DNA of 60,649 bases, counting the filler, from Sphacelaria rigidula (Eukaryota): the NCBI GenBank assembly GCA_964200075.2. It is 10 parts of 10 records of this genome, joined end to end, with 100 filler letters (N's around TTAATTAATTAA, not from the genome) between each part and the next. Parts side by side here need not be neighbours in the genome. Positions count along the whole stretch, not along the records: positions 6,076 to 12,050 come from CAXNAA020023079.1; positions 12,151 to 18,125 come from CAXNAA020023080.1; 8 more parts are not named here. One strand, written 5' to 3'. Shown one piece after another: positions 5,976 through 56,060 of this stretch. The notes under the pieces are model-generated. The model made no database searches. It was not told the DNA's origin and saw only the letters and a program-made list of their open reading frames with translations. Position numbers and translations under genes: made by a program. Positions within the stretch are counted from its first letter, which is position 1, and every line of letters starts with the position of its first letter.

Positions 5976-6075
5976 NNNNNNNNNNNNNNNNNNNNNNNNN
6001 NNNNNNNNNNNNNNNNNNNTTAATTAATTAANNNNNNNNNNNNNNNNNNNNNNNNNNNNNNNNNNNNNNNNNNNN
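5976..6075. other. Artificial fragment spacer (N-run with TTAATTAATTAA), recurring every 6075 bp
   Basis: Identical 100-bp spacers start at 5976, 12051, 18126, 24201, 30276, 36351, 42426, 48501 and 54576. Confidence 0.98.
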
Positions 6076-6506
6076 GGCCCGGTCAGCATGCTCGCCGGAA
6101 CAACGTGCTCGCACTGGTGCTCGTGGCAAGTGCTCTCTACCAGTGCGTCCCGTGTTTCGTTCCCCTACTCTGCAGCCTGCTGCTCGCTACGAAGGGATAC
6201 TGGTGGACAGGTACACGAGCGTGTGCCCCGACAGCGCTGTCTTACTTCGAGCCAACGAGGCGACCAGTCCCCACGCATTGTCGGCACTCCGCGGATTGTC
6301 ATCACACACACATGCGCACGGGCTTCTATTGTCTACTTCTGTCACGGAGACTGGACCAAGAGGTACATGAGCTATCGAGTCCTCCGATCACGACACGCGT
6401 GTTGCTTGCGCGTCCACGAAGACATGATTCATAACCCCACACCGACCAGGCACGGTTTCGCTTGTCGACCATCGCGCTTCACCACATGACCCGTCCCGCG
6501 TCTCAC

Positions 6507-6578
6507 CACTCAGTTGATTCCCCTGAAGATTGACGTCTTCAAGCGAACCGCACTCACCCAGCTCCGGCGGAATGGCAC
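6507..6578 (-). CDS. LRR exon GAIPPELGECGSLEDVNLQGNQLS
   Basis: 72 bp, CAG|...|GTGAGA boundaries, phase 1-1, plant-specific-class 24-aa LRR. Confidence 0.92.
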
Positions 6579-7149
6579 CTGTGGCGGAAACACGCAAGAC
6601 AACAAATGTGTTATGGAGTCTCGGGAGAGGAACCCACAACTCACACGCAAGCTCCGTGTTCCCTATCCACGCGCTTGCAGGACGACTCTTGACAAGCCGG
6701 GCGACCTGTGCTCCACAAGGCCCAGTCAGCATGCTCGCCGGTACAACGTGCTCTCACTGGTGCTCGTGGCAAGTGCTCTTTACCAGTGCGTCCCGTGTTT
6801 CGTTCCCCTACTCTGCAGCCTGCTGCTCGCTACGAAGGAATACTGGTGGACAGGTGAACGAGCGTGTGCCCCGACAGCGCTGTCTCACGTCGAGCCAACG
6901 AGGCGGCCAGACCCCACGCAGTGTTGGCACTCCGACGATTGTCATCACACACACATGCGCACGTGCTTCTATTGTCTACTTCAGTCACGGAAACTGGACC
7001 AAGAGGTACATGAGCTATCGAGTCCTCCGATCACGACACGCGTGCTGCGTGCGCGTCCGCGAAGACATGATTCATAACCCCAAAACGACCAGGCACGGTT
7101 TCGCTTGTCGACCATCGCGCTTCACCACATGACCCGTCCCGCGTCTCAC

Positions 7150-7221
7150 CACTCAGTTGATTCCCCCGAAAATTGACGGACGTTAGCTCACGGCACTTCC
7201 ACAGCTCCGGCGGAATGGCAC
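7150..7221 (-). CDS. LRR exon GAIPPELWKCRELTSVNFRGNQLS
   Basis: 72 bp, canonical splice sites, phase 1-1. Confidence 0.9.
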
Positions 7222-7793
7222 CTGTGGCGGCGACACGCAGTAGGGCAAATGTGTGGCGGGCGCCTTGGGACAGCAACCCGAAACTCACACGCAAGCTCCA
7301 CGTTCCCCACCAACGCGCTGGCAGGACAACTCTCTACAAGCCCGGCGGACTCGTGCTCCACCAAGCCTGGTCAGCATGCTCGCCGGTACAACGTGCTCGC
7401 ACTGGTGCTCGTGGCAAGTGCTCTCTACCAGTGCGTCCCGTGTTTCGTTCCCCTCTCTGCAGCCTGCTGTTCGCTACGAAGGAATACTGGTGGACAGGTA
7501 AACGAGCATGTGCCCCGACAGCGCTGTCTCACGTCGAGCCAACGAGGCGACAAGTCCTCACGCAGTGTCGGAATTCCGACGATTGTCATCACACACACAT
7601 GCGCACGTGCGTCTGTTGTCTACTTCTGTCACGGAGACTGGACCAAGAGGTACATGAGCTATCGAGTCCTCCGATCACGACACGCGTGTTGCTTGCGCGT
7701 CCGCGAAGACATGATTCATAGCCCCACACCGCTCTGGCACGGTTTCGCTTCTCGACCATCGCGCTTCACCACATGACCCGTCCCGCGTCTCAC

Positions 7794-7865
7794 CACTCAG
7801 TTGATTCCCCTCAAGATTGACGGACGTTAGCTCACGGCACTCCCCCAGCTCCGGCGGAATGGCAC
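7794..7865 (-). CDS. LRR exon GAIPPELGECRELTSVNLEGNQLS
   Basis: 72 bp, canonical splice sites, phase 1-1. Confidence 0.92.
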
Positions 7866-8434
7866 CTGTGGCGGAGACACGCGATACGACGAATGTGTCA
7901 TGGGGTCTCGGAAGAGGAATCCACAACTCACACGCAAGTTACACGTTCCCCACCAACGCGCTGGCAGGACAACTCTTTACAACCCAGGCGGACCCGTGCT
8001 CCAACAGGCCCAGTCAGCATGCTCGCCGGTACGACGTGCTCGCACTGGTACTCGTGACAAGTGCTCTCTACCAGTGCGTCCCGTGTTTCGTTCCCCTACT
8101 CTGCAGCCTGCTGCTCGCTACAAAGGAATACTGGTGCACAGGTGAACGAGCGTGTTCCCCGACAGCGCTGTCTCACGTCGAGACAACGAGGCGACCAGTC
8201 CCCACGCAATGTTGGCACTCCGCGGATTGTCATCACATACACATGCGCACGTGCTTCTATTGTCTACTTCTGTCACGGAGACTGGACCAAGAGGTACATG
8301 AGCTATCGAGTCCTCCGATCACGACACGCGTGTTGCGTGCGCGTCCGCGAAGACATGATTCATAACCCCACACCGACCAGGCACGGTTTCGCTTGTCGAC
8401 CATCGCGCTTCACATGACCCGTCCCGCGTCTCAC

Positions 8435-8506
8435 CACTTAGTTGATTCCCCTGAAAATTGACGGACCTCAGCTCACGGCACTTCCCCAGCTCCGGCGGAA
8501 TGGCAC
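8435..8506 (-). CDS. LRR exon GAIPPELGKCRELRSVNFQGNQLS
   Basis: 72 bp, canonical splice sites, phase 1-1; translated by hand because it is absent from the ORF track. Confidence 0.92.
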
Positions 8507-9078
8507 CTGTGGCGGAGACACGCGATACAATGAATGTCTAATGGAGTCTCGGGGGAGGAACCCACAACTCACACGCAAGCTCCAAGTTCCCTACCAACGC
8601 GCTGGCAGGACAACTCTTTACCAGCCGGGCGGACCCGTGCTTCACCAGGCCCAGTCGGCATGCTCGCCGGTACAACGTGCTTGCACTGGTGCTCGTGGCA
8701 AGTGCTCTCCACCAGTGCGTGCTGTGTTTCGTCCCCCTACCCTGCAGCCTGCTGCTTGCTGGGAAGGAATACTGGTGGACAGGTACACGAGCGTGTGACC
8801 CGACAGCGCTGTCTCACTTCGAGCCATCAAGGCGACCAGTCCCCACGCATTGTCAGCACCTCGCGGATTGTCATCACACACACATGCGCACGTGCTTCTG
8901 TTGTCTACTTCTGTCACGGAGACTGGACCAAGAGGTACATGAGCCATCGAGTCCTCCGATCACGACACGCGTGTTGCGTGCTCATCCGCGAATACATGAT
9001 CCATAACCCCACACCGTCCAAGCACGGTTTCGTTTCTCGACCATCGCGCTTCACCACATGACCCGTCCCGCGTCTCAC

Positions 9079-9150
9079 CACTCAGTTGATTCCCCTCAAG
9101 ATTGACGGACCTTAGCTCACGGCACTTCCCCAGCTCCGGCGGAATGGCAC
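9079..9150 (-). CDS. LRR exon GAIPPELGKCRELRSVNLEGNQLS
   Basis: 72 bp, canonical splice sites, phase 1-1. Confidence 0.92.
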
Positions 9151-9722
9151 CTGTGGCGGAGACACGCGATACGATGAATGTGTAATGGAGTCTCGGGAGA
9201 GGAACCCACAACTCACACGCAAGCTCCGTGTTCCCCACCAACGCGCTGGCAGTACAACTCTTTACAAGCCGGGCGGACCCGTGCTCCACCAAGCCTGGTC
9301 AGCATGCTCGCCGGTACAACGTGCTTGCACTGGTGCTCGTGGCAATTGCTCTCTACCAGTGCGTCCTGTGTTTCTTTCCCCTACTCTGCAGCCTGCTGCA
9401 CGCTACGAAGGAATACTGGTCGACAGGTACACGAGCGTGTGACCCGACAGCGCTGTCTCACTTCGAGCCAACGAGGCGACCAGACCCCACGCAGTGTGGG
9501 CATTCCGACGACTGTCATCACACACACATGCGCACGTGCTTCTACTGTCTACTTTTGTCACGGAGACTGGACTAAGAGGTACATGAGCTATCGAGTCCCC
9601 CGATCACGACATGCGTGTTGCGTGCGCTTCCGCGAAGACATGATTCATAACCACACACCGACCAGGCACGGTTTCGCTTCTCGACCATCGCGCTTCACCA
9701 CATGACCCGTCCCGCGTCTCAC

Positions 9723-9794
9723 CACTCAGTTGATTCCCCTGAAGTTCGACGACTTCTAGGGAAGAGCACTTCCCCAGCTCCGGCGGAATGGCAT
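9723..9794 (-). CDS. LRR exon DAIPPELGKCSSLEVVELQGNQLS
   Basis: 72 bp, canonical splice sites, phase 1-1. Confidence 0.9.
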
Positions 9795-10368
9795 CTGTGG
9801 CGGAGACACGCCATACAACGAATGTGTGGTAGGCCCCTCTGGAAAACGACCCACATTCAACACGCAAGCTCCACGTTCCCTATCCACGCGCTAGTATGAC
9901 CACGCTCAACAAACCGGTCGGGCCCGTGCTCCACCAGGCCCAGACAGCATGCTCGCCGGTACAACGTGCTTGCACTGGTGCTCGTGGCAAGTGCTCTCTA
10001 CCAGTGCGTCCCGTGTTTCGTTCCCCTACTCGGCAGCCTGCTGCTCGCTACGAAGGATTACTGGTGGACAGGAAAACGAGCGTGTGCCCCGACAGCGCTG
10101 TCTCACTTCGAGCCAACGAGGCGACAGTCCCCACGCAGTGTTGGCACTCCGACGATTGTCATCACACACACACATGCGCACGTGCTTCTATTGTCTACTT
10201 CTGTCACGTAGACTGGACCAAGAGGTACATGAGCTATCGAGTCCTCCGATCACGACACGCGTGTTGCGTGCGCGTCCACGAAGACATGATTCATAACCCC
10301 ACACCGCTCTGGCACGGCTTCGCTTGTCGACCATCGCACTTCACCACATGACCCGTCCCGCGTCTCAC

Positions 10369-10440
10369 CACTCAGTTGATTCCCCTGAAGGTCGACGACT
10401 TCTAGCGAACCGCACTCACCCAGCTCCGGCGGAATGGCAC
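10369..10440 (-). CDS. LRR exon GAIPPELGECGSLEVVDLQGNQLS
   Basis: 72 bp, canonical splice sites, phase 1-1. Confidence 0.92.
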
Positions 10441-10884
10441 CTGTGGCGGAGACACGCGATACAACGAATGTGTCATGGAGTCTCGGGCGAGGAACCCACA
10501 ACTAACACGCAAGCTCCACGTTCCCTACCAACGCGCTGGCATGACAACTTTCTACAAGCCGGTCGGACCCATATTCCCCCAGGCCTGGTCAGCATGCTCG
10601 CCGGTACAACGTGCTCGCACTGGTGCTCGTGGCGAGCGCTCTTCACCAGTTTGTTCCGTGTTTCGTCTCCCTCCTCTGCAGCCTGCTGCTCGCTACGAAT
10701 GGATATTGGTGTAAACGAGCGTGTGAGACTGCACCAAGAGGTTAATCAGATATCGAGTCCTCCGATCACGACACGCGTGTTGTGTGCACGTCCACGAAGA
10801 CTTGACTCATAGCTCTACGGGGCCCAGACACGGTTTCGCTTGTCGACCATCGCGCTTCACCACGTGACCCGTCCTGCGTCTCAC

Positions 10885-10956
10885 CACTCAGTGTATTGCC
10901 CTGGAGTTTGACGACTTCTAGTGCTTCGCATTCCCCCAGCTCCGGCGGAATGGCAC
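10885..10956 (-). CDS. LRR exon GAIPPELGECEALEVVKLQGNTLS
   Basis: 72 bp, canonical splice sites, phase 1-1. Confidence 0.92.
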
Positions 10957-11399
10957 CTGTGGCAGCGACAGGCGATACAACAAATGTGTTATGGAGTCTC
11001 GGGAGAGGAACCCACAACTAACACGCAAGCTCCACGTCCCTATCCACGCGCTGGCATGACAACTTTCTACAAGCCGGACGGAACCGTGCTCCACCAGGCC
11101 CAGTTAGCATGCTCGCCGGTACAACGTGCTCGCACTGGTGCTCGTGGGAAGTGCTCTCTACCAGTGCGTCCCGTGTTTTGTTTCCCTCCTCTGCAGCCTG
11201 CTGCTCGCTACGAATGGTTTTTGGTGAAAACGAGCGAGTGAGACTAGACCCAGAGCAACATGAGCTATCGAGTCCTCCGATCACGACACGCGTGTTGCGT
11301 GCGCGTCCACGAAGACATGAGTCATAGCCCCACGGCGCCCAGACACGGTTTCGCTTGTCGACCATCGCGCTTTACCACATCACCCGTCCCGCCTCTCAC

Positions 11400-11471
11400 C
11401 ACTCAGTTGATTCCCCTCAAGATTGACGGTCCTTAGCTCACGGCATCTCCCCAGCTCCGGCGGAATGGCAC
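11400..11471 (-). CDS. LRR exon GAIPPELGRCRELRTVNLEGNQLS
   Basis: 72 bp, canonical splice sites, phase 1-1; translated by hand. Confidence 0.92.
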
Positions 11472-11914
11472 CTGTTGCAGCGACAGGCGATATAACAAAT
11501 GTGTTATGGAGTCTCGGGAGAGGAAGCCACAACTAACACGCAAGCTCCACGTCCCTATCCACGCGCTGGCATGACAACTCTCTACAAGCCGGTCGGAGCC
11601 ATATTCCCCCAGGCCTGGTCAGCATGCTCGCCGGTACAACGTGCTCGTACTGGTGCTCGTGGCGAGCGCTCTTCACCAGTTTGTTCCGTGTTTCGTTTCC
11701 CTCCTCTGCAGCCTGCTGCTCGCTACGAATGGATATTGGTGTAAACGAGCGTGTGAGACGGCACCAAGAGGTTTATCAGCTATCGAGTCCTCCGATCACG
11801 ACACGCGTGTTGTGTGCACGTCCACGAAGACTTGACTCATAGCTCTACGGGGCCCAGACACGGTTTCGCTTCTCGACCATCGCGCTTCACCACATGACCC
11901 GTCCCGCGTCTCAC

Positions 11915-11986
11915 CACTCAGTTTATTGCCCTGGAGTTTGACGACTTCTAGTGCTTCGCATTCCCCCAGCTCCGGCGGAATGGCAC
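11915..11986 (-). CDS. LRR exon GAIPPELGECEALEVVKLQGNKLS
   Basis: 72 bp, canonical splice sites, phase 1-1. Confidence 0.92.
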
Positions 11987-12389
11987 CTGTGGCAGCGACA
12001 GGCGATACAACAAATGTGTTATGGAGTCTCGGGAGAGGAACCCACAACTANNNNNNNNNNNNNNNNNNNNNNNNNNNNNNNNNNNNNNNNNNNNTTAATT
12101 AATTAANNNNNNNNNNNNNNNNNNNNNNNNNNNNNNNNNNNNNNNNNNNNTGTAGAGTGGTGCCCAGAATAAATGGGACAACGCAACACACAACACACTC
12201 CATGTCCGTTGCGCCTCTTGTTTTTGTGAAATATTTGGGGAGGAAATCATTCAATGATAGAGGGAGGGGGATTTCAAAGCATCATCCCCTCCGCCTACTT
12301 TGTCAGTGTATCGTTCATTTATAGAGTCGTTGTTTTTCTATAGAATGAACTAGCTAGTAACATGGGTAAGTAAGATTACCTCTAACCTC

Positions 12390-12830
12390 GAAAAACGAAG
12401 CGGGGAAATTCACTCGACCCTGAAAACAGTACACTTCACAAACCCCTTCAGCTCCACGTCACCCTGCGACGTTTTTCATTTCTGAAAGCTTGATGAGATA
12501 GTGAAATGTTTTTCCATCACCGTTCACCTTCCACGAGGGCGAGATTCGACCTTCGACTCAAGCTGTCAACGCCTCAAAGTATGTGCGTAATAGGCAATGC
12601 GCGGAGTTCTGAAAACGAAGCGGGGGAATTCACCCGACTCTGAAAACAGTACACTTCACAAATCCCTTCAGCTCCACGTCACCCTGCGACGTTTTTCACT
12701 TCTGAAAGCTTGATGATATAGTGCAATGTTTTTCTATCACCGTCCACCTTCGACGAGGGTGAGATTCGACCTTCGACTCAAGCTGTCAGCGCCTCAAAGT
12801 ATGTGCGTAATAGGCAATGCGCGGAGTTCT
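12390..12830. repeat. Tandem duplication, ~220-bp unit x2
   Basis: GAAAACGAAGCGGGG...AATGCGCGGAGTTCT starts at both 12390 and 12611. Confidence 0.9.
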
Positions 12831-13271
12831 GATGGTGGCTCTGACACTTGGATGTTGCAAAACGGAAATTTGATTCTTCACACGCATACTCGATGAACAT
12901 TGGAGACACCGGAACTCAAAACCGTGCTTTCGAGAAAATATTTTTCAAATTTTCGAGAACGGTCATCGATCACACGGGTCGCAGAAGTGCACCGTACAAC
13001 ACAGTACAATCAGTACAGTACAGCGCAGTACAGTACAGTACAATGCTATCTTCTCTATGAATCCCGCCGCATTCCTCCCTTCTTCTGTGGGTATCGTCGA
13101 GTATCAGATTACTCCTTTGGAGATCGTCACTGGAGATGGTCGCCTCTTTCTACAAATAACCGGCTTTAAAGTTGAACTGTCTGAACCCCGTTTAGGTCGT
13201 CCGGGTTTTGCACTCATTTTTCAAGTATTCTACACTCTTTCGCTGAGAAGGGGCGCTCTTATTACACCAGT

Positions 13272-14425
13272 GCAATGGCCCGTCCCATCCAGTGCACGAT
13301 GGATGCGCATCAGTAGATATCAACAACAAGTGCACGGTGTGGTCCAAGTCTGAAGCCACCTAGGCGCTCCGACAAATTGTAGCCTTGACGGGATTACCAC
13401 CCCACGTGTTTGCGTTGCGTTCTCTAAGAATTAGGAGCGCTACATGTTGCGCGCCAGGCGAGTCAGAGTGAGAGGGGATGCGCTAGGAAGAATATTTCTA
13501 CGCAATGGCCCGTCCCATCCAGTGCACGATGGATGCGCATCAGTAGATATCAACACGTGGACGGTATGGTCCAAGTCTGAAGCCACCTAGGCGCCCCGAC
13601 AAATTGTAGCCTTGACGGGATTACCACCCCACTTGTTTGCGTTGCATTCTCTAAGAATTAGGAGCGCAACATGTACGCGGCGAGTCAGAGTAAGTAAGGG
13701 GGGATGCGCTAGGAAGAATATTTCTACGCAATGGCCCGTCCCATCCAGTGCACGATGGACGCGCATCAGTAGATATCAGCACGTGGACGGTATGGTCCAA
13801 GTCTGAAGCCACCTAGGCGCCCCGACAAATTGTAGCCTTGACGGGATTACCACCCCACGTGTGTACGTTGCATTCTCTAAGAATTAGGAGCGCTACATGT
13901 TGCGCGCCAGGCGAGTCAGAGTAAGGGGGGATGCGCTAGGAAGAAGATTTCTACCCTACGTTCGTAACTATGACATGGATGAACACTGGGTTTCCGAAAC
14001 CTTCGTGCAACCTCGATATGCCGTAAGACAACCGGGCCAAGGAACTCAGTGAGGAAGTATATTATGTGTGCCTCAATGGTATATTGGGAGAGCGTTCAAT
14101 CGTCGTCATAGTGCGGGAGAAAGACTTTCGTTATCAGTCTTCCTTTCAAACGTAGGGCAGGCAGACCCACGTGGCCGGCTTGGTGCTGCATGCTCTTGGA
14201 AATCCCGCTGAATTTTCATACCTTTTCTGTGTCACGTTGGTATCGGTGTCAAGTCTCAGGCCACCGAGCGAGGCGCTCCGACAAATTGTAGCCTTCGCGG
14301 GATTACCACCCCACGAGTTTGCGTTGCATTCTCTCAGAATTAGGGGTGCCACATGTTTGCGGCAGGCCGTGCATCGCCCAAAGTATTGAAGAGTGAGGGG
14401 GGATGCGCTAGGAAGCAGATTTGGA
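13272..14425 (+). pseudogene. Degenerate DIRS/Ngaro-type tyrosine recombinase C-terminal fragments: three tandem ~228-bp copies plus a fourth diverged copy (~14250-14420)
   Basis: Translates as WTVWSKSEAT.ALRQIVALTGLPPH.FALHSLRIR[GS]AT (the HSLRIGGAT-like HxxR box), followed by ...YPYVRN; contains stops and frameshifts. Confidence 0.75.
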
Positions 14426-19520: not shown

Positions 19521-22366
19521 GTCATTTCCCTCTTAGAGATCCCAAACGCGGCGACGTCCAGAGGCTACGTGGTGTGTGATGAGTGCAACGGAAGCTGAAA
19601 CAACTCACTATTGAGTGGCATCGCCAATTCAATCACTTCGAAGGTGAAGTGGGAGGCGTGCCCATCGAGCATCAGCACGTGCGGCTTCCCGTCAGCCTTT
19701 CCGGTGTCAAGAATGTGCCTGTGGAACGCCTTTATGTAGCTAATGAACACCGGTCCCTGGATGAATGGCGATTCGGTTGAAGCGTACCATGCACCCGGTG
19801 AACCCCCGCCATTAAGCCACGCCAGCTGCACTCGTTGCCCTCTAAAAATTATCAGCGGTGGAGTCACCTCGTCCGCTGCATTGAGGGTGGCGACGACCGT
19901 AACATTTCGCGGGAGTTGTAACGCTTCGTGCCGGAGATCTTTTTTCATTTCTCGGCGATAAGCTTTTTAGTCTTGATTCCTTGCGGAGTAGCACCTACGG
20001 CGAAGATATTCATGATTGATGTGTATAGAGGGGGGAAAGAGGGATGGGCGTACTACGTGATACTGTCTTACGGTACCGAGTAGTGCGTCGAGTTTTGAAT
20101 GGTACGCACAGCATTGGCATCACCTTTAATGACGGTGCTTGCAAGACCTCTACAGACAGTATAGGCAGTACTTCCATAAAGTATAAGTACAAAAAACAAA
20201 ACACGCCGAGAAAGTAGTACGACATGCACAGAGGAACGCCGACTGCTGCGTAGCCTAAGAACGCAGCGAGAATAATACCGTTTCAAGTGCAGCACAATTC
20301 AGAGCAGACAAACGCCACTCTACGGCAACAGCCTCTGGCTCTAGCTCTAGACACATGCGTTGTATCACATAAACAGAACGGCTCTTAAAAGACAGTGAAA
20401 CACTTGTCTCGTCAGTGTTCCATATGTGATCGGTTGCTGGCTTTTCCTTGTCCATGTAGTCCTGCCAAGCCGCATAAAACTCCCGAATGCGATCTTCTTC
20501 TTCAGCAATCACCCTATCAGCCTCGTAGATGCGGCTGCTGCGTTCCGCTAGCCGCGGGTGCCTCTGAAGGAACAAGTCGAGCCACTTCCCGCCTGAGCCT
20601 ACAACCGGGTCCCACGGTACCGGTCGGTTGTCGCTGCAGAGTGTCACAGCCACCTGTTTCAGGTCATCTCTATTCCGGCCGAGTTGATAAGCTGCGGCAA
20701 ATGTCAAAGTATCCTTGATGAAATTTCTTTCCGCCGTCGACAGTACGGTGCCCGGACCAACCCTGCCAGCTATGCCTACGCCACCACTGACACGCTTCTC
20801 CAGCGAACCAACGGAGATGTCAAAGGTCTTTGCAGCAGCACGGAAGGTCATGTGACCGCTGCGTATCGCTTCTGCGGCCTCTGCTGCACGTTCTGGGTCC
20901 ACCCTTGCTCTCTGAATGCTTAGCAGGCGATCGACCAAGAAGCTGGTGTTGGAGAAAGAAACTGTGGGATAGTGTTTTCTGATGCTATAGGCACCTGCAG
21001 TAGCTCAAACGAAGCGCCGTGCTCTTGTGCACATGAAGAGAAAAACAGAACGGAAAATGAACAGTACTTCGCGGAGTTATGGGCGATTAAAAAACCTGTA
21101 TCTCAATTGGTACTCTATGTTGTCAATAGGAACATTTACCACTGCAAAGCGGACGGCATGATGTCTTCAGCACAGGCACCATTTTTGTTGTCGATATTGG
21201 TGATGTTGAAACACACACAAGCGTCAGCTTCGCATTAGTCTTTTCAAGAGCATGTGTAAACACCAGGGATTTCAGATCGAATCAGTTCCTTTTTGTAAGA
21301 AAATCCAACCCGATGCAAGGAGGTTTGTTTGTAGCCGTCGTGAACTGACTCAAGCACCCCTCAACCCCTGGCTGGATTTCACGCCAGTATCTTCAGCCGG
21401 CCCTTCAGAGATTGCTAGTCGAATAGCTAGCCCATCCTCGTACTGACCCTCCACCACTACGCCACGATCCATAACTGTAGTCAATAGCGGGGGGAACCTC
21501 CTTCGGGTACATTTAGGATGCCTGGATTTAAGTCGTAAGACCTGATGTCTCGATGATGCCTGTCGCACGTTTTACTACACCATTAAACTGTGGGGGGTCT
21601 ATGATTGTTTTCTCCTGCTTGATTTTCTCTGTCACACAAATTAGCAAACACACCCTCCGAAAATGTAACCCTGGTCGCCACCATCTCGCTCTACACCCCC
21701 TGTCCCTACCGAAACACACACTCGCCTGCGGTATTGTCGATGGTCGTCTCCACGCTGGTGAATGCCTCTCCCTCTGCATCTAAACACACTGCGGAGTCAT
21801 TGATCTCGTTGACCACGCCTGCCGACATCACCTCATCTTTACCAGCCGCTTGCGATCTCGGACAACCTATGGTTCTGTGTTCATTCTCGCCGTGCTCACT
21901 ACAGTGCCTGTGCAGGCAATCTATTGCCCGGTGCGTCGTCATTTGCTAGCAAATATGCCAACGCAGCAGAGGCTCAGGCACCACTTGGCTGCTCGTTGCA
22001 GATAATAATCCTTGACCTCCGATCTGACTGCCGTCCGTCGAAGATGAGGAACCTGAACTGTTCTAGCCTTGGCTCCCGCTGCTGCCGCGGCCTGATCTCT
22101 GGAGCTTCTCCGTTTTCCCCTCGCGACGCCGGCTGCTCGGCCTGCCGGGTTGGTCCTTGGCGCGTCGCGGGTTGACCCTTGGCGACAATGGCCTGGTCGC
22201 CCGAGGATGCCATCTTCCCCCGAGCGAGCACCTGTTTAAAGGTAGACAATTCGAAGCGCTTGAGAACCGAGGTCAACACGATTTCTCTCCAAAGGGGGCC
22301 TCGCGAGCATCCTTTGGCTGCTTAAGGACGTCGTACATGCACGAATTTTGACAGCATACGCGCGTT

Positions 22367-37020: not shown

Positions 37021-37312
37021 GTACGTTCAATTTGTCTTGAGGCTTTCACTTCTTATCTTGTCGCCGAGCCCCCCTTGCGTTTGTGTGGCTCATAGGCGTA
37101 GGACGAAATTTTCGCTCGCTTCCGTGGCGTGTTGATGTTCCCTTGAGGAACCTGTCCCGTGGTACGGCCCCCCTCTTTGAGCACACTCAGTCGCTTTTTC
37201 GAACGCATACTTGTGGATGTTGCGAAGCAGCCCTCTCTATCGCCAAAAACCGTCCCTTGACGCCATGAACTTATAATCTGACCCCGCTTGTTCGGCGGGT
37301 GAATCGGCACAG

Positions 37313-39298
37313 GTGGAAATGCTTGCGCTGGCGCTGTGCCTCCCTCAGGCGTGGGAACGCGTGGTCGCTCCTCCTTCCCCCGAACGTCATCGAAGCAGGG
37401 TACGACAGAGGCCAACAACTCCGACGCCTGACGCTGGTGTAAGTGAGAGCCGCGCCGCCGTGGAGGGTGCTTCATGGGGGACGCGAAGTTCGTCGCCGAT
37501 AGCATCGGGCGTGAGCAATGATGCGGCATTGGGACAAACAACGGAGACAGGGGTGTCGTCAGAGGCCTCTGGAGACAACGGCGTAGCAGCGATGGTCGCA
37601 GAAACACCAGCGCAATCGCCGCAGCCGAAAGTGGAATTGGCGAACGTACCTTTGAACACCACAGTGCCATCGGACTCGACGGGAACGTCTACAGCGCCGC
37701 CTATCGCGGCCGCCCCACCTGTTGAAGACCAACCGTTTATCAGAAAAACACAGGGGACGTGGGGGACTGTGGACTCCAGTAGTAGTGACGACGATGAAGG
37801 CGATGATGAATCTGATGAAGTTCCGGCAGAAGGCACAGACGTGACGGCGGCAGAGAACGTGCCGACGGAAGGAGAGGCGGAAAATGAGGAAGCAGACGGA
37901 GATGCGGCACGTTGTCGGGCTGTGCCTGTGCCAAGAACTCCTCGTACTTTGGTGGCAGCACCCGCAGCGGAGGGCCCAGTCAGCGAGCAAGTCGCGAGCG
38001 TGTCTGTCGGAGCCCAATACGCTGGGGCAGTCCCTATCGCTGCCGCCGTCGCCTCGACGCCGCCCGCGGCAGTTGTAGCCCTGGGTTCAAGGCCCAATGT
38101 GAAGGTGGTGTCGTTGCCTGTGGACTTGGAAGACTGGCGGGAACGAGTGAGACGCGCAGAGACGACTCCGGAGCTAGCAGAGCTGGCTCTAGAGCTCGAT
38201 CTCGCCCTTCCGCGCGACGAGGGTTGGTTGCAGCCGTGGTACAAGACCGGGAGCTTCGCGGAGCCAAATATTGGTGGAGGCTCTTCGTTGGCCGCCGCGG
38301 CCACACGAGTGTTTGCTCTGGATCGCGCCCTCCGATGGGAGTTGATCCCTCGTCCGCGCCGCGGGGGTACCGGCCTTCCGGGCGATCTCCCTCGCGCCTG
38401 GCCGTTCTTCCTTCAATGTCCCCTGTCGCCGTTGTGCGTGCGCCCGTGTCTACACAAAGGGAAATGCAAGCATCACAGGAGCGGCGTTTCACGGGTTGAC
38501 CATCCTATGGTGGTGCCGCCTATGAGGCATCAAACGCCGTACGGTTCGCCGTACGGTTCGCCGTATGGTTCGCCGTACGGTTCATCGTATGCGTCGACAC
38601 ACAGTCCCGCCACGACCGTCGTTACTCCCCCTGCCACTGCCGCTGCCGCTGCCGCCCCAGCGCCGATGGCTGCGCCAGCGATGGCGTCGACGGCTGCGGC
38701 GGCGGCTTACTACGCTCGCACAGCTGGGTCCGCGCCGACGACGCAGAGCGCCACTTCAACTATCGCCAGTGGGTGGCCGCCAACCCCAAGCGGGGCGGCA
38801 GGGCTCGCGTCAGGGAACGCGGTTGGAGGAACACTCGTTCCACAGCAGCATGTGGGCCAAAGCAATCACCCGGGTTTGGCAGCAACAGCAGCAGCTGCTG
38901 CTGCTGTCGCTGCCACGCATGCGTCAAGGCCGATATATCCGCAGGTGACAGGGCCACCTGTCAGTGCACCGGCACCCGCGCCGATGATGACGGCATATTC
39001 AACGCCGGCACCAGCCCCCCCAGTGCCGCAGCACCAAGGGCAACTGCAGCAGCTACTCCAACCACCAACTTCAGCACCTGTACCTACGCAACCTGCCCCG
39101 CAGGCGTACGTGCCGCCTGTCGTCACCGCCGCGCCAACCGCACCTCCCCCACTAGCAGTGCCAGCAGCGGCGCCGCATATCCATGCCGCTGTTCCTACCG
39201 CTGGTGTGGCCTTGGGTAGTTTTGGAGGTTCCGCGGTGCAACAAGCCGCGGCTACTGACTCTGCCGCTCAGCCAGGGCTGAATGTTCCCCGGGAGTAG
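37313..39298 (+). CDS. Large terminal exon, probably a DDT/WSD(WHIM)-type chromatin protein with acidic and Ala/Pro-rich disordered regions
   Basis: 661 open codons after a CAG acceptor; LEDWRERVRRAETTPELAELALELDLALP resembles the WHIM3 helix pattern. Coding status is well supported, the family is tentative. Confidence 0.75.
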   Translation: MEMLALALCLPQAWERVVAPPSPERHRSRVRQRPTTPTPDAGVSESRAAVEGASWGTRSSSPIASGVSNDAALGQTTETGVSSEASGDNGVAAMVAETPAQSPQPKVELANVPLNTTVPSDSTGTSTAPPIAAAPPVEDQPFIRKTQGTWGTVDSSSSDDDEGDDESDEVPAEGTDVTAAENVPTEGEAENEEADGDAARCRAVPVPRTPRTLVAAPAAEGPVSEQVASVSVGAQYAGAVPIAAAVASTPPAAVVALGSRPNVKVVSLPVDLEDWRERVRRAETTPELAELALELDLALPRDEGWLQPWYKTGSFAEPNIGGGSSLAAAATRVFALDRALRWELIPRPRRGGTGLPGDLPRAWPFFLQCPLSPLCVRPCLHKGKCKHHRSGVSRVDHPMVVPPMRHQTPYGSPYGSPYGSPYGSSYASTHSPATTVVTPPATAAAAAAPAPMAAPAMASTAAAAAYYARTAGSAPTTQSATSTIASGWPPTPSGAAGLASGNAVGGTLVPQQHVGQSNHPGLAATAAAAAAVAATHASRPIYPQVTGPPVSAPAPAPMMTAYSTPAPAPPVPQHQGQLQQLLQPPTSAPVPTQPAPQAYVPPVVTAAPTAPPPLAVPAAAPHIHAAVPTAGVALGSFGGSAVQQAAATDSAAQPGLNVPRE

Positions 39299-52187: not shown

Positions 52188-52438
52188 GACTGCTGCCGAG
52201 ATAGCCCCCCGCCCTAACCGGCCAAAAAGGTGCACGGTAGCGGACATCATAAATACCGATAGAGCTGGTTTCGCTCTGGACGACGCGACTCATTTGGGCG
52301 TTATAGCTGATTTCAGACTGCTACACGCCTATTATGTGGGCGAAATTGCTGCCAACGAGCCCAGTAGTGGGACCACAGCCGGTTTGTCGGACGGTCTCCG
52401 GTGCACGTTTTTGTGAGGGGGCTATCTCGGCATTAGTC
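52188..52438 (+). mobile_element. MITE family B
   Basis: TIR GACTGCTGCCGAGATAGCCCC / GGGGCTATCTCGGCATTAGTC. Confidence 0.85.
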
Positions 52439-54095
52439 TTCCCTTCGCCGGAGCCCCGGCCACGACCTCCACCGCCGCCGCCGTCGCCGCAGCCTCCTCC
52501 ACGGCTTGGCGGACGGCCTGACGAACTTTTTTCGGCAGTCCATTACTAGACTTGAGCAGCCTAGGAAACAAAACTATGGCGGCTCTCAGATCTTCTGTTC
52601 CGGTGTCTCGCACGAGCTGGCGCCCCCGTCGGCAGGTGGTCGTGGGGATAAAGTCCCCCGACCAACCTCCCGGTCCATATGTAGCCGCGATCTCTCCTGC
52701 CCGTACCGCTTCAATCGCCGCCGCCCGTAGTCGGCGAGCGGCTGGGGTTGGTACTGAATTGGCGGTGGTGCTGCCGTTACCGTGGACCCCGGCACCACCT
52801 GACGCACGACTCATGGTTGCACCCTGTGTGTCTCCAGCTGACGCAACGCAACCGACTGCGCGCAGCGCACCAGGCTGGCTGATCACCCCAGGATAAACGC
52901 CGGGTTCCACGCCCCCAGTCGCGGTAATTCTGGTCCCTGAGTCGACAGCTCCCATCGCCGGAGCCGCGTCGGCTGCACCAGAGGCGGCCGTGTGGCCATT
53001 ATCAGTGACGTGCAAAGTCAGTAACGCCCCCGAGTTGTTGGCTGCGGACTGCTTCAGCCCCGACGGAACTGTCATATCCAACCTTCCCCCTACCACCGCT
53101 GACCCTGCGACGGGCCCCGGAGGTGACGCTCCTTCTACTACTGCGGACTGTGACGCTTGCGCCGACGTCTTCTTCGGGGAAAACCAGTGCAACAGAATCT
53201 CCGTCTTTTGCGATATGCTGTCCACCGGCGACGGGAATTGAACTTTCCGCTTTTCGAGAATCTTACCGACCACGAACGGGATCGGAGAATTTGCCGGGGT
53301 AGGGAACACGGCGAACTCGCCCACCTCGCAGTTGGGTTCTGGCTTGGTTTGCTGACATTGTGCTTTTGGAGTTTGTGGCAGTCGCGATTGCGAATGCTCT
53401 TGCTGTTTCGCTTCCGTGACCCGATTCTCGTGCGGGCTCTTCTTCGTCGCTGTGTTCTTCTCCGTTTTATTCATGAAGTGGTTTCGGCTTGTTTTCCCCG
53501 CATCGACAGGAGTTCGTCGCGTTTTCTCGTGCCCACCAACCATCGGCTGGTGGTTTATTTCCTCATCACTGGGAGAGGCTCGACGATTGTACACGACCCG
53601 ATCGTGAGCATCTCCACTTTCGTTTTCACGCGGCAACGGCGCCTGCAGCACGCATTTATCCCTATCTTCACTACTTGCAGATGGCAACGGCAGTTGTTGG
53701 CGTTGTGTACCTCGGCTGTTCCCCTCCTCCAACACGCGATTGCGAGAGCGTGTGAGCCGCGTTGGGACCATGAAACCGGCCGCGGGGGTGCTACATTCGC
53801 CAGCAACATCAGCACCAGCATCACCGCTGCAAGCAACGCCTGCACCGAAACTACCATTGTGAACGTTCCGTTGGTATACGCGAGGCTCCACATAGTCAGA
53901 ATCCGAACCTGTGTCAGACTCAGATTCCAACTCGACAGCGTCGTCCTCAGGGCTGCCGTTGTCGTTTTTACCCTTCGTGAAGCTCGAGTTATTGGCGCTC
54001 CTGGTCACGCGCAATCGAGACCCCACCGGCCCTTGTTTCTGCTGACTTGGGTGACGCCGTATTCCGCCTACAACCGCACAACGGTAATACAGCAT
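52422..54095 (-). CDS. Long ORF/exon of unknown function with an SH3/Tudor-like segment (CEVGEFAVF...PFVVGKI...ILLHWF); true start probably a splice acceptor near 54040
   Basis: 557 open codons, protein-like composition; the stop codon lies inside the MITE B TIR. Confidence 0.6.
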   Translation of the reverse strand: MLYYRCAVVGGIRRHPSQQKQGPVGSRLRVTRSANNSSFTKGKNDNGSPEDDAVELESESDTGSDSDYVEPRVYQRNVHNGSFGAGVACSGDAGADVAGECSTPAAGFMVPTRLTRSRNRVLEEGNSRGTQRQQLPLPSASSEDRDKCVLQAPLPRENESGDAHDRVVYNRRASPSDEEINHQPMVGGHEKTRRTPVDAGKTSRNHFMNKTEKNTATKKSPHENRVTEAKQQEHSQSRLPQTPKAQCQQTKPEPNCEVGEFAVFPTPANSPIPFVVGKILEKRKVQFPSPVDSISQKTEILLHWFSPKKTSAQASQSAVVEGASPPGPVAGSAVVGGRLDMTVPSGLKQSAANNSGALLTLHVTDNGHTAASGAADAAPAMGAVDSGTRITATGGVEPGVYPGVISQPGALRAVGCVASAGDTQGATMSRASGGAGVHGNGSTTANSVPTPAARRLRAAAIEAVRAGEIAATYGPGGWSGDFIPTTTCRRGRQLVRDTGTEDLRAAIVLFPRLLKSSNGLPKKVRQAVRQAVEEAAATAAAVEVVAGAPAKGRLMPR

Positions 54096-54675
54096 GAGGA
54101 GAAGGCGAAAAGGAACCGTGTAGTGGGCTTGTGATCAAAATACGTCCCTTTGCTTCTGTGATGTGGCGTGCGCACGGTGGTGGGGAAACGGACAGAGGAA
54201 GGGGAACTTGTGCTTTTGACATTCATACGTTAGATGAAGTACGCAGATCGTACGGCAATTTCAACCAACATAGCGTATGTACGATCGACGTGTAAAGCCT
54301 TCCTTGCGAATGAATGACCAACGTCTAGCACGTGAATCGCCTGCCAACCCCGTGCGCACGTATCGAGCGAGCGAAGGGACCCAGAATCACCAGACCAAAC
54401 CAAACTATAATGACGCTGTTTGGGCTCTCAATCCCCGAAACCTTAGCCTGAACACCATCAAAGAAGCAGGTGGCTATTTAGGAACGACACCACCGGACAC
54501 ACCACCGCACACCCCCAGCGTGTGGAGGCGACATGACACTTTCTACGATACACGCCCCCCCCCCCAACCGCCGCCNNNNNNNNNNNNNNNNNNNNNNNNN
54601 NNNNNNNNNNNNNNNNNNNTTAATTAATTAANNNNNNNNNNNNNNNNNNNNNNNNNNNNNNNNNNNNNNNNNNNN

Positions 54676-56060
54676 CTAATGGTACAGTAACTAAAGCGAA
54701 AGCTAGATTAGTGGCGCGTGGGTTTGGTCAGAGATTCGCGGTGGATTATTTTGAGACGTTTGCAGCCACCCCGGCCATGACATCAATAAAATTGGTCATG
54801 GCCGTGGCAGTACAGAGAGGATGGCCACTCCATCACTTCGACGTTACCCAAGCTTTTGTACGAGCCAAAATGGACACGAACGTGTTCATGAAGCTCCCAG
54901 AAGGGTGTGGCCCCCTGACAGGTAGTACGGTCAGGCTGGAAAAATCTATATACGGAGTAAAACAAGCGGGAAGACAATGGTCCCTCCTCCTTAATAAAAC
55001 ACTGGTGGAGGACGTGAAAATGTCGCAAAGTAAGGCTGACCCGTGTGTGTACAGACTGGTGGAAAAGGGGGAAGTGTGTGTGATACTTGTTGTGCACGTG
55101 GATGACATTCTAATCGGGGGAGACACGAAAAGAGTGGATACCGTATGTAATATCCTCAATAACAGATTCCCGACGAACAACTTGGGTGAAGCACAGTGGT
55201 ACATGGGATGTGCCATAGAAAGAAACTGGAAAAGAGGTACCATGTTTGTAAACCAGACGACTTTTGTCGATACCATGCTGAAGCGCTTTGAGGTTACGGA
55301 ATTCTCTGATATTCCCGCATCAGTGTCGGCAGATTTGGGACCGGTTAAGCGAGGTGATAAGGTTTTAGATAGACCGTACCGGAGTGCCGTGGGCGGTTTG
55401 ATGTGGTTAGCTGGGGTAACAAGGCCTGACATAGCTAACGCGGCCCGAGACCTGGCCCGACAATCACATGACTCATGTGAAAGACACTGGCGAGGGGTGT
55501 TGAAAGTTCTGGCATACCTCAATACGACCAGGAACTACGGTCTGACTTTTAGTTCAGGGGAGAGTAGGGTCACAGTATATTGTGATGCTGATTACGCCAA
55601 GAAATATACAGACCGGCGGTCAGTTTCCAGTGTAGCTGTCATGTATGGGGGAATAGCAGTATCAAGTACTAGCCGAACGCAACACTGCGTGACCCTGTCA
55701 ACCACGGAGGCCGAGTACGTAGCTACGGCGGAAGGAGCGAAGGAGTGCATGTTTGTCAGGTCGGTACTGTCTTTCCTACGACCGAAGATCGTGTTGGGAC
55801 GACAAGTAGAATACGATATTGTTCTCTATGAAGACAATGAGGGGGCTAAGGCTCTAGCCGACAACCGTCTCAGCTCAGGTCGAAGTAAGCACATCGACGT
55901 GAGGTGGCATTTTATTAGGGACCTTGTTAGGACGGGAACAGTAAGGATCGTTCATGTGTATTCGGAGTGGCAACACGCTGATATCCTTACAAAGCCGCTC
56001 CCATTCACGCTGTTCAACAGGCACCGCCGCGCCTTGATGAACGCTGCGGACAGCGAGTAG
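54676..56060 (+). mobile_element. pol: Ty1/copia LTR retrotransposon pol: reverse transcriptase (RVT_2) + RNase H, uninterrupted
   Basis: KARLVARGF, DYFETFA, DVTQAF, KSIYGVKQAGRQW, HVDD, DADYA, STTEAEY, KHIDVR and ADILTKPL. Confidence 0.97.

Follow-up and report, generated by a model that had tools for sequence, protein, structure and literature searches.

The window analysed here is a stretch of 60,649 nt from Sphacelaria rigidula, and its interval 6076–12050 carries an array of ten leucine-rich repeat (LRR) exons that is an expressed and selectively maintained segment of a gene of the 'type I LRR exon' kind. To our knowledge, the nucleotide-binding LRR (NLR) and receptor repertoires of plants and animals are missing from brown algae. 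Their main candidate immune receptors are genes with one LRR or one tetratricopeptide repeat (TPR) per exon, in which the exons get reshuffled. The array is a clean and quantifiable case, with introns that are kept alike, exon ends that are conserved even at synonymous sites, and ligand-face exon cores that have diverged far more and have a genealogy of their own. An immune role for its product is putative and comes from the literature only.

Anatomy of the exon array

The window is composed of ten fragments of 5,975 nt each, joined through linkers of the form N44-TTAATTAATTAA-N44 at 5976–6075, 12051–12150 and onward. As the fragments are artificially concatenated, neighbours within the window are not evidence of neighbours in the genome. 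The array interval corresponds exactly to fragment 2 of the ten. Exons were located with a script that searched for AG, 72 nt and GT, the 72 nt being open in phase 1 and beginning with P..L; 11 rows were returned, of which row 11 (9035–8964) was discarded because it is without the LRR motif. The other ten are intact 72-nt exons on the minus strand with AG/GT borders in every case, and each encodes one 24-residue LRR of the plant-specific type. A 20-nt word from the exon start, allowing up to 3 mismatches, finds ten matches in the window, all within fragment 2, and none in 100 shuffles. Both fragment ends are intronic, and the array therefore extends beyond these ten exons.

The nine complete introns are all bounded by GT..AG and fall into two length classes: introns 1–3 (443, 443 and 444 nt; 443–444 nt class) and introns 4–9 (574, 572, 572, 569, 572 and 571 nt; 569–574 nt class). 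A segment of ~130 nt in the long class is missing from the short class. The spacing of the exons is 515, 515 and 516 nt, then 646, 644, 644, 641, 644 and 643 nt; repeat units were defined by script, their period of 515–646 nt lying above the 500-nt limit of Tandem Repeats Finder. Pairwise identity ranges from 83.1 to 95.3% among introns and from 72.2 to 98.6% among exons. All exons are of phase 1-1 in the standard convention, and joining the ten in silico gives an open frame. The codon split across the exon junctions is G plus GT (GGT, Gly), and before E5 it is G plus AT (GAT, Asp).

The exon consensus reads A-I-P-P-E-L-G-x-C-x-x-L-x-x-V-x-L-x-G-N-x-L-S, with the split Gly preceding it. When the ten exons are aligned, 13 of the 23 complete codons encode the same residue throughout; I2, P3, L6, L12, V15, N20 and L22 do not vary, and one Leu position is occupied by Val. 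The exon cores fall into about four deep types. The original prediction had described ten intact 72-bp exons of one 24-aa LRR each, all in phase 1-1, within introns that are close copies of each other, and the exon scan, the split codons with the open joined frame and the intron identities bear it out on each count. To this can be added that the array lies on the minus strand and that its interval is a single artificially joined fragment. The features are as follows, with X1, X4, X6 and X7 denoting sequencing runs that are described in the next section.

11987–12050, minus strand: 3' end (64 nt) of an upstream intron truncated at the edge of the fragment; alignable with the final 64 nt of the other introns, CAG being its last bases
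11915–11986, minus strand: LRR exon E1, 72 nt, core type A (script scan)
11472–11914, minus strand: intron 1, short class, 443 nt, GT..AG, without the ~130-nt long-class segment
11400–11471, minus strand: LRR exon E2, core type B, between short-class introns; groups with E6–E9 in the exon tree
10957–11399, minus strand: intron 2, short class, 443 nt, GT..AG (unit alignment)
10885–10956, minus strand: LRR exon E3, core type A, 98.6% identical to E1 (script scan)
10441–10884, minus strand: intron 3, short class, 444 nt, GT..AG (unit alignment)
10369–10440, minus strand: LRR exon E4, core type C; E4–E5 junction in runs X4 and X7
9795–10368, minus strand: intron 4, long class, 574 nt, GT..AG; exactly skipped by contigs in X4 and X7
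9723–9794, minus strand: LRR exon E5, unique core, starts with A (split codon Asp); its 5' start shares 0 nt with other exons
9151–9722, minus strand: intron 5, long class, 572 nt, GT..AG
9079–9150, minus strand: LRR exon E6, core type B (script scan)
8507–9078, minus strand: intron 6, long class, 572 nt, GT..AG; RNA fold z −0.06 versus shuffles
8435–8506, minus strand: LRR exon E7, core type B, unique CTAAGTG 3' end (script scan, junction comparison)
7866–8434, minus strand: intron 7, long class, 569 nt; exactly skipped by contigs in X4, X6 and X7, not X1
7794–7865, minus strand: LRR exon E8, core type B (script scan)
7222–7793, minus strand: intron 8, long class, 572 nt, most diverged 3' end; part covered by RNA-like contigs
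7150–7221, minus strand: LRR exon E9, core type B, Trp replacing a conserved Gly (script scan, exon alignment)
6579–7149, minus strand: intron 9, long class, 571 nt, GT..AG
6507–6578, minus strand: LRR exon E10, core type C (script scan)
6076–6506, minus strand: first 431 nt of the tenth intron, cut by the fragment end; 88–95% identity to the other long-class introns

Transcription and splicing

Nine public runs hold part of the fragment, the best share of sampled words being 0.35. All but one carry the same organism label, and the exception is labelled 'algae metagenome'. None of the runs is on record as RNA, and four are guessed to be so. Four runs were mapped, of which X1 is DNA-like and X4, X6 and X7, three of the four guessed ones, are RNA-like. 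Run X1 covers all 30 bins in a DNA-like pattern; in X4, X6 and X7 the depth peaks on exon bins and is zero or near zero in most intron bins.

An exact joint between 7865 and 8435 (E7–E8, with the 569 nt of intron 7 skipped) is present in all three RNA-like runs and absent from the one DNA-like run. The exact joint between 9794 and 10369 (E4–E5, with the 574 nt of intron 4 skipped) is found in X4 and X7, that is, in two of the three RNA-like runs, and likewise not in X1. The skipped stretches show CT..AC on the plus strand, corresponding to GT..AG on the minus strand. Both junctions are unambiguous, as no other exon has more than 4 nt in common with the 3' end of E7, and none has any in common with the start of E5. 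These contigs show serial splicing at the predicted borders, with two junctions seen and two more compatible. The original prediction hinged on spliced transcripts using these junctions, and the exact E7–E8 and E4–E5 contigs do so.

Two longer joints were considered as candidates for exon skipping and rejected. The joint 9150/10369 (E4>E6, 1,218 nt, shorter side 22 nt) has the same sequence as canonical E5>E6 over 22+72 nt; for the joint 9150/11400 (E2>E6, 2,249 nt, shorter side 25 nt), the sequence is that of canonical E6>E7 over 30+37 nt. Since both match canonical junction sequence, they provide no evidence for exon skipping.

Contigs of X4, X6 and X7 with 0 differences and a depth of 56–91 run over 7193–7689, covering most of intron 8 and continuing unspliced into E9; in the same three runs the depth over intron 7 (7876–8275) is 0. 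The coverage of intron 8 may represent intron retention or a separate transcript. In X1, a contig (depth 73, side 36) joins 7886 to 8475, and the 588 nt skipped have ends CG..TC that are not splice-like. The joint is not present in the RNA-like runs and may reflect structural variation, a paralogous copy or an artefact of the graph.

Diversity and selection along the repeat unit

Nucleotide diversity (pi) was measured over the ten aligned exon-plus-intron units. It amounts to 0.018 in exon nt 1–22, 0.307 in nt 23–56 and 0.069 in nt 57–72, with an intron mean of 0.111, so that the exon ends are ~6-fold less diverse and the 34-nt core ~2.8-fold more diverse than the introns. Of 542 intron windows, each 34 nt long, not one reaches the core value. 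Conservation equal to that of the exon ends (pi 0.033–0.047) continues past the donor for ~48 nt into each intron (e.g. 9031–9078), a possible sign of a splicing signal or of a block of homology for recombination.

Judged against the intron rate, the exon ends hold 8 differences where 25.1 are expected (approximate P 7e-5) and the core holds 73 where 22.5 are expected (approximate P 3e-17). The simulated probability that ten neutral copies would all be intact is, again approximately, 0.019. The ratio of non-synonymous to synonymous polymorphism (pN/pS) is 0.28–0.30 in the flanking codons. The synonymous value of the core (pS 0.33) is high, which points to cores that are old or imported. Codons 8, 10, 11, 13, 14, 16, 17, 18 and 21 are variable and include three of the four published positively selected sites (14, 16 and 18); from their positions in the repeat, the hypervariable residues are predicted to lie on the concave beta-strand face, as in other members of this class. 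We read the pattern as purifying selection on structural residues and on splice-proximal sequence, even at synonymous sites, together with a ligand-face core that holds old or imported diversity and not demonstrably fast point evolution.

Incongruence between exons and introns

The exon tree separates {E2,E6,E7,E8,E9} from {E1,E3,E4,E5,E10} with support of 98/98, and the intron tree separates {I1,I2,I3} from the rest with support of 97/95, the shared deletion not being counted. Exon E2 thus has a B-type core and stands between short-class introns that are shared with its A-type neighbours. In approximately unbiased (AU) tests, each data set rejects the grouping of the other, with p values of 0.038 for exons, 0.0016 for downstream introns and 9e-5 for upstream introns. 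A test akin to the pairwise homoplasy index (PHI), using 71 informative sites in nine units, gave a neighbour incompatibility of 0.272 versus 0.347 ± 0.015 for permuted sites, and a value as low as the observed one occurred in 0 of 2000 permutations. The partition of the exon cores is shown by 4 exon sites but by none of 57 intron sites, and the exon-core distance is greater than the intron distance in 32 of the 36 unit pairs.

The conflict between the two trees implies that recombination has uncoupled the cassettes from their introns. It does not say in which way, as introns homogenised around persisting cores and cores swapped into place would both fit the incongruence. The original prediction had called for this comparison of trees, which proved incongruent, and had proposed that the introns serve as recombination substrates. 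Part of that proposal stands, in that the incongruent trees fit recombination among similar introns, whereas exon skipping or swapping in transcripts is not supported.

Comparison with known LRR systems

The 'type I LRR exon' was described in Ectocarpus by Zambounis et al. 2012 as an exon of 72 nt encoding 24 aa in the register GxxPxxLxxxxxLxxLxLxxNxLx (PMC3341825). In that alga such exons are shared by all ROCO proteins but one, 5 LRR-kinases and 46 of the 164 other LRR loci. The introns of 19 ROCO and 13 other loci are reported to contain LRR exons that are inactivated or antisense, a feature that is not universal; the LRR-kinases are said to have no shuffled exons; and exon shuffling, possibly by somatic recombination, is proposed for the arrays (PMC3341825). 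Teng et al. 2024 examined four brown algae and found 111 ROCO genes with 4–49 tandem N-terminal LRRs, of which only 18 match the COR profile (PMC11378527). Their paper gives 72-bp exons in which nt 3–71 encode 23 aa, positively selected sites 14, 16, 18 and 19, and 15 non-ROCO type I loci in S. japonica, most of them LRR-only. It also reports alternative use of LRR exons in ROCO genes and states that somatic recombinants have never yet been reported (PMC11378527).

The S. rigidula array has one 72-nt exon per LRR, the type I register and a symmetric phase. The architecture had been likened in the original prediction to that of Ectocarpus LRR-ROCO genes, and the register indeed matches the published type I exon (PMC3341825, PMC11378527). 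The Ectocarpus ROCO arrays are alike in having a 72-nt exon per 24-aa LRR, the register G-x-x-P...N-x-L-x, frame neutrality, LRRs of the plant-specific type and variable residues within the LxxLxLxxN segment. They differ in that the introns here are clean, close copies in two length classes and Cys stands at position 10; moreover, those genes have ROC-COR, whereas the present one is known from LRR exons and introns alone. The ROCO exons of Saccharina japonica, Cladosiphon okamuranus and Nemacystus decipiens are likewise spliced 72-bp exons, and their positively selected sites 14, 16 and 18 vary in the present array as well. The consensus of Teng et al. 2024 has L (or V, I, A) where Cys stands here, and their positively selected site 19 is an invariant Gly in this array. 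Their paper reports alternative splicing, in contrast to the joints seen here, which are reducible to canonical junctions, and the exon phase that it calls '2' equals phase 1 in the standard convention.

The non-ROCO type I loci (46 of 164 in Ectocarpus, 15 in S. japonica) have the same exon type, and it has been suggested that they form a reservoir with which ROCO genes exchange. Further afield, lamprey variable lymphocyte receptor (VLR) cassettes and arthropod Dscam clusters are similar as modular, frame-compatible tandem recognition units, a parallel also drawn in PMC3341825 and PMC11378527. Unlike in those systems, the exons here appear to be spliced in series, and nothing indicates somatic assembly or mutually exclusive splicing. 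The array adds another case to a published architecture, is not of a new kind, and leaves knowledge of the architecture itself unchanged.

Protein matches and the Cys variant

A profile was built from the ten repeats, each padded with 4+3 intron codons, and searched against a global protein library, where it matches 17,144 proteins at E<=0.001. Pfam families LRR_1, LRR_4 and LRR_8 are found in all 33 proteins scanned among the 150 best matches. These 33 include one with Roc and COR (P0044, LRR+Roc+COR-A+COR-B), one kinase and many with bacterial-type domains. A 112-aa in-frame read-through open reading frame (ORF) gave 4 matches among 9 candidates (region 42–81, in longer proteins) with 52–63% identity; these have LRR Pfams with PQQ, cadherin or fn3 and no Roc or COR, and are uninformative. 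An exact 25-mer scan of metagenome contigs returned 0 loci.

Cys occupies repeat position 10 in all ten exons. Among 3,393 regex-matched repeats in the 150 best matches, the same position is Leu in 3,228 and Cys in 9, and six of these nine belong to P0085, a 641-aa LRR+SPRY protein. The Cys variant is unusual globally and fixed in this array. That it may mark a distinct subfamily, as the original prediction suggested, is not supported by this comparison, which is with a global library that appears to be poor in close relatives. Protein P0085 is the only one of the 150 best matches with the GxC variant in most repeats; its 24-aa repeats read IPPELGxC...NQLSG, and in 6 of the 8 that were matched Cys stands where it does in the array. 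It differs from the array in being one long predicted protein, on metagenome contigs of at most 13.9 kb. As P0085 comes from metagenome assemblies and is no closer to the exons than other repeats, the shared Cys may be convergent.

Alternative explanations

The gene to which the array belongs can be pictured in two ways. The exons may encode the N-terminal LRR domain of a ROCO (LRR-ROC-COR) GTPase, whose ROC-COR part would lie 3', beyond 6076 on the minus strand; we regard this as possible, at rather less than an even chance. The near-universal presence of type I exons in Ectocarpus ROCO proteins (PMC3341825), the 111 tandem-LRR ROCO genes of four brown algae (PMC11378527) and P0044, as 1 of the 33 top matches scanned, speak for it. 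The fragment ends in introns, however, so that any ROC (PF08477) or COR (PF16095) is outside; by the published counts alone, ROCO genes make up less than half of type I loci; and the antisense or inactivated intronic exons reported from 19 ROCO loci do not occur here. About as probable, by a slight margin the more so though still short of even, is that the array instead belongs to a non-ROCO gene, which could be an LRR-only 'reservoir', an LRR-kinase or an LRR gene with another C-terminal domain such as SPRY. Type I exons are recorded from 5 LRR-kinases and 46 of 164 other loci in Ectocarpus and from 15 loci in S. japonica, and the array is 'clean' (intact, on one strand and without decayed copies), as in the Ectocarpus LRR-kinases. 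P0085, the sole library protein with mostly Cys repeats among the 150 best matches, is of the LRR+SPRY kind, but it is no closer than ordinary Leu-type repeats (about 60% identity by eye). The fragment moreover contains only LRR exons and introns, and kinase, transmembrane or SPRY parts would lie outside. Because the effector domain is beyond the fragment, the array is not assigned to the ROCO family.

Two further explanations concern what the array does. Diversification within the individual, through Dscam-like combinatorial exon skipping or VLR-like somatic recombination between introns, appears very unlikely. The symmetric phase would permit it, alternative LRR-exon use is described for Ectocarpus ROCO genes (PMC11378527), somatic recombination was hypothesised in 2012 (PMC3341825), and the data contain joints skipping 1,218 and 2,249 nt, loose ends unlike the genomic upstream exon and the joint 7886>8475 seen only in the DNA-like run. 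The skipping joints are, however, sequence-identical to canonical E5–E6 and E6–E7 over the observed lengths, the loose ends measure 8–17 nt and could come from paralogues, the introns are without a conserved RNA structure that could be a selector, and somatic recombinants had never been reported as of 2024 (PMC11378527). About as improbable is that the array is a pseudogene or satellite, a tandem repeat in decay or without function in which LRR-like frames merely persist. The repeat is highly regular, long stop-free frames exist on both strands, and intron 8 (7222–7793) has RNA-like contig coverage of the sort expected from unspliced RNA. Against this stand the ten exons with all 20 borders intact (10 AG and 10 GT; neutral P 0.019), exon ends far more conserved than the introns (P 7e-5) and the exact spliced junctions; in addition, variable intron sites are without 3-periodicity (p 0.45) and 0 of 10 read-through ORFs match Pfam.

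Preferred explanation and its implications

Taken together, the fragment very probably comes from within the LRR-coding part of a single nuclear gene that is transcribed and belongs to the 'type I LRR exon' class of brown algae. Several points weigh against this. The RNA-like runs are only guessed to be RNA, and their contigs are short, with a shorter side of 22–37 nt; no contig crosses more than one junction in the runs mapped, and a single full-length transcript is consequently not demonstrated. As no run exceeds 0.35 of sampled words, the exact order of the array is without independent confirmation. The Poisson and simulation P values are approximate because the copies share ancestry and the tests assume independence, and the clades compared in the AU tests were named only after the trees had been seen. 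The core (codons 8–18) has a pN/pS of 0.90, which is not above 1, and positive selection on point mutations is not demonstrated. Single 23-aa exons barely reach Pfam, with LRR_4 in 2 of 10 and a best E of 0.056. Finally, the introns proved free of inactivated or antisense LRR exons in a six-frame motif scan, which returned only the ten exons and a chance plus-strand match at 11189–11221.

Under the preferred explanation, the array could have grown by tandem duplication of exon-plus-intron units via unequal crossing-over between similar introns, and later recombination or gene conversion would have homogenised the introns. Differences between cores may have been kept by selection, or cores may have been replaced from diverged donors. 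As the exons are symmetric and of equal length, any gain, loss or exchange keeps the frame, and with frame-neutral exons the number and order of ligand-contact modules would be cheaply changeable. The product would be a curved LRR solenoid that binds a partner, and its signalling part, whether ROC-COR GTPase, kinase, none or other, would lie outside the fragment.

A more specific proposal, which we consider unlikely, is that the 34-nt cores are old specificity cassettes swapped by short-tract gene conversion in the germ line and perhaps in somatic lineages too. Homology for conversion could be supplied by the invariant 22-nt exon start, by the conserved ~64-nt block formed by the exon end and the first ~48 intron nt, and by the homogenised introns, and the partners would be found within the array and among paralogous arrays. 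If true, gene conversion of cores would supply the recombination mechanism left open by the 2012 paper (PMC3341825), and would explain a synonymous divergence of the core (0.33) that is three times the intron diversity (0.11). The pattern of the array would lend itself to measuring conversion tracts and to testing whether exchange is germ-line or somatic.

Other readings of the introns and other window content

On the plus strand of 6076–12050, 99 stop trinucleotides are observed versus 154.6 ± 8.9 in shuffles, with a GC skew of about −0.14, and frames are stop-free over 170–201 codons, one per repeat unit, in 2–3 frames. A coding gene on the plus strand within the introns was considered and rejected: the depletion extends to all three frames, the ten copies are not independent, the variable sites are without 3-periodicity (p 0.45), and 0 of the 10 ORFs scanned match Pfam. 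The depletion is probably a compositional effect.

A conserved RNA structure in the introns, of the selector or docking type, was also rejected. The fold of a single intron has a z of −0.06, folding the alignment gives a covariation term of +2.27, 5 of 148 pairs being compensatory, and a duplex between the 5' and 3' intron ends is ~1–2 standard deviations better than shuffles, being equalled by 8 to 92 of 300. Rfam has 0 matches in the fragment.

The other fragments contain unrelated features. Long stop-free frames occur at 37277–39298 (plus strand, 673 codons) and 52422–54134 (minus strand, 570 codons) in GC-rich stretches of fragments 7 and 9, neither with a Pfam match at E<=0.001. Fragment 3 holds tandem repeats, unrelated to the array, at 12392–12832 (220 nt x 2.0, 94%) and 13272–13954 (226 nt x 3.0, 92%). 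Transposon-like ORFs are found in two places outside fragment 2, one with an HTH_psq domain (E 3e-8) at 20255–21004 on the minus strand and one encoding a copia-type reverse transcriptase (RVT_2, E 1e-39) at 54678–56060 on the plus strand.

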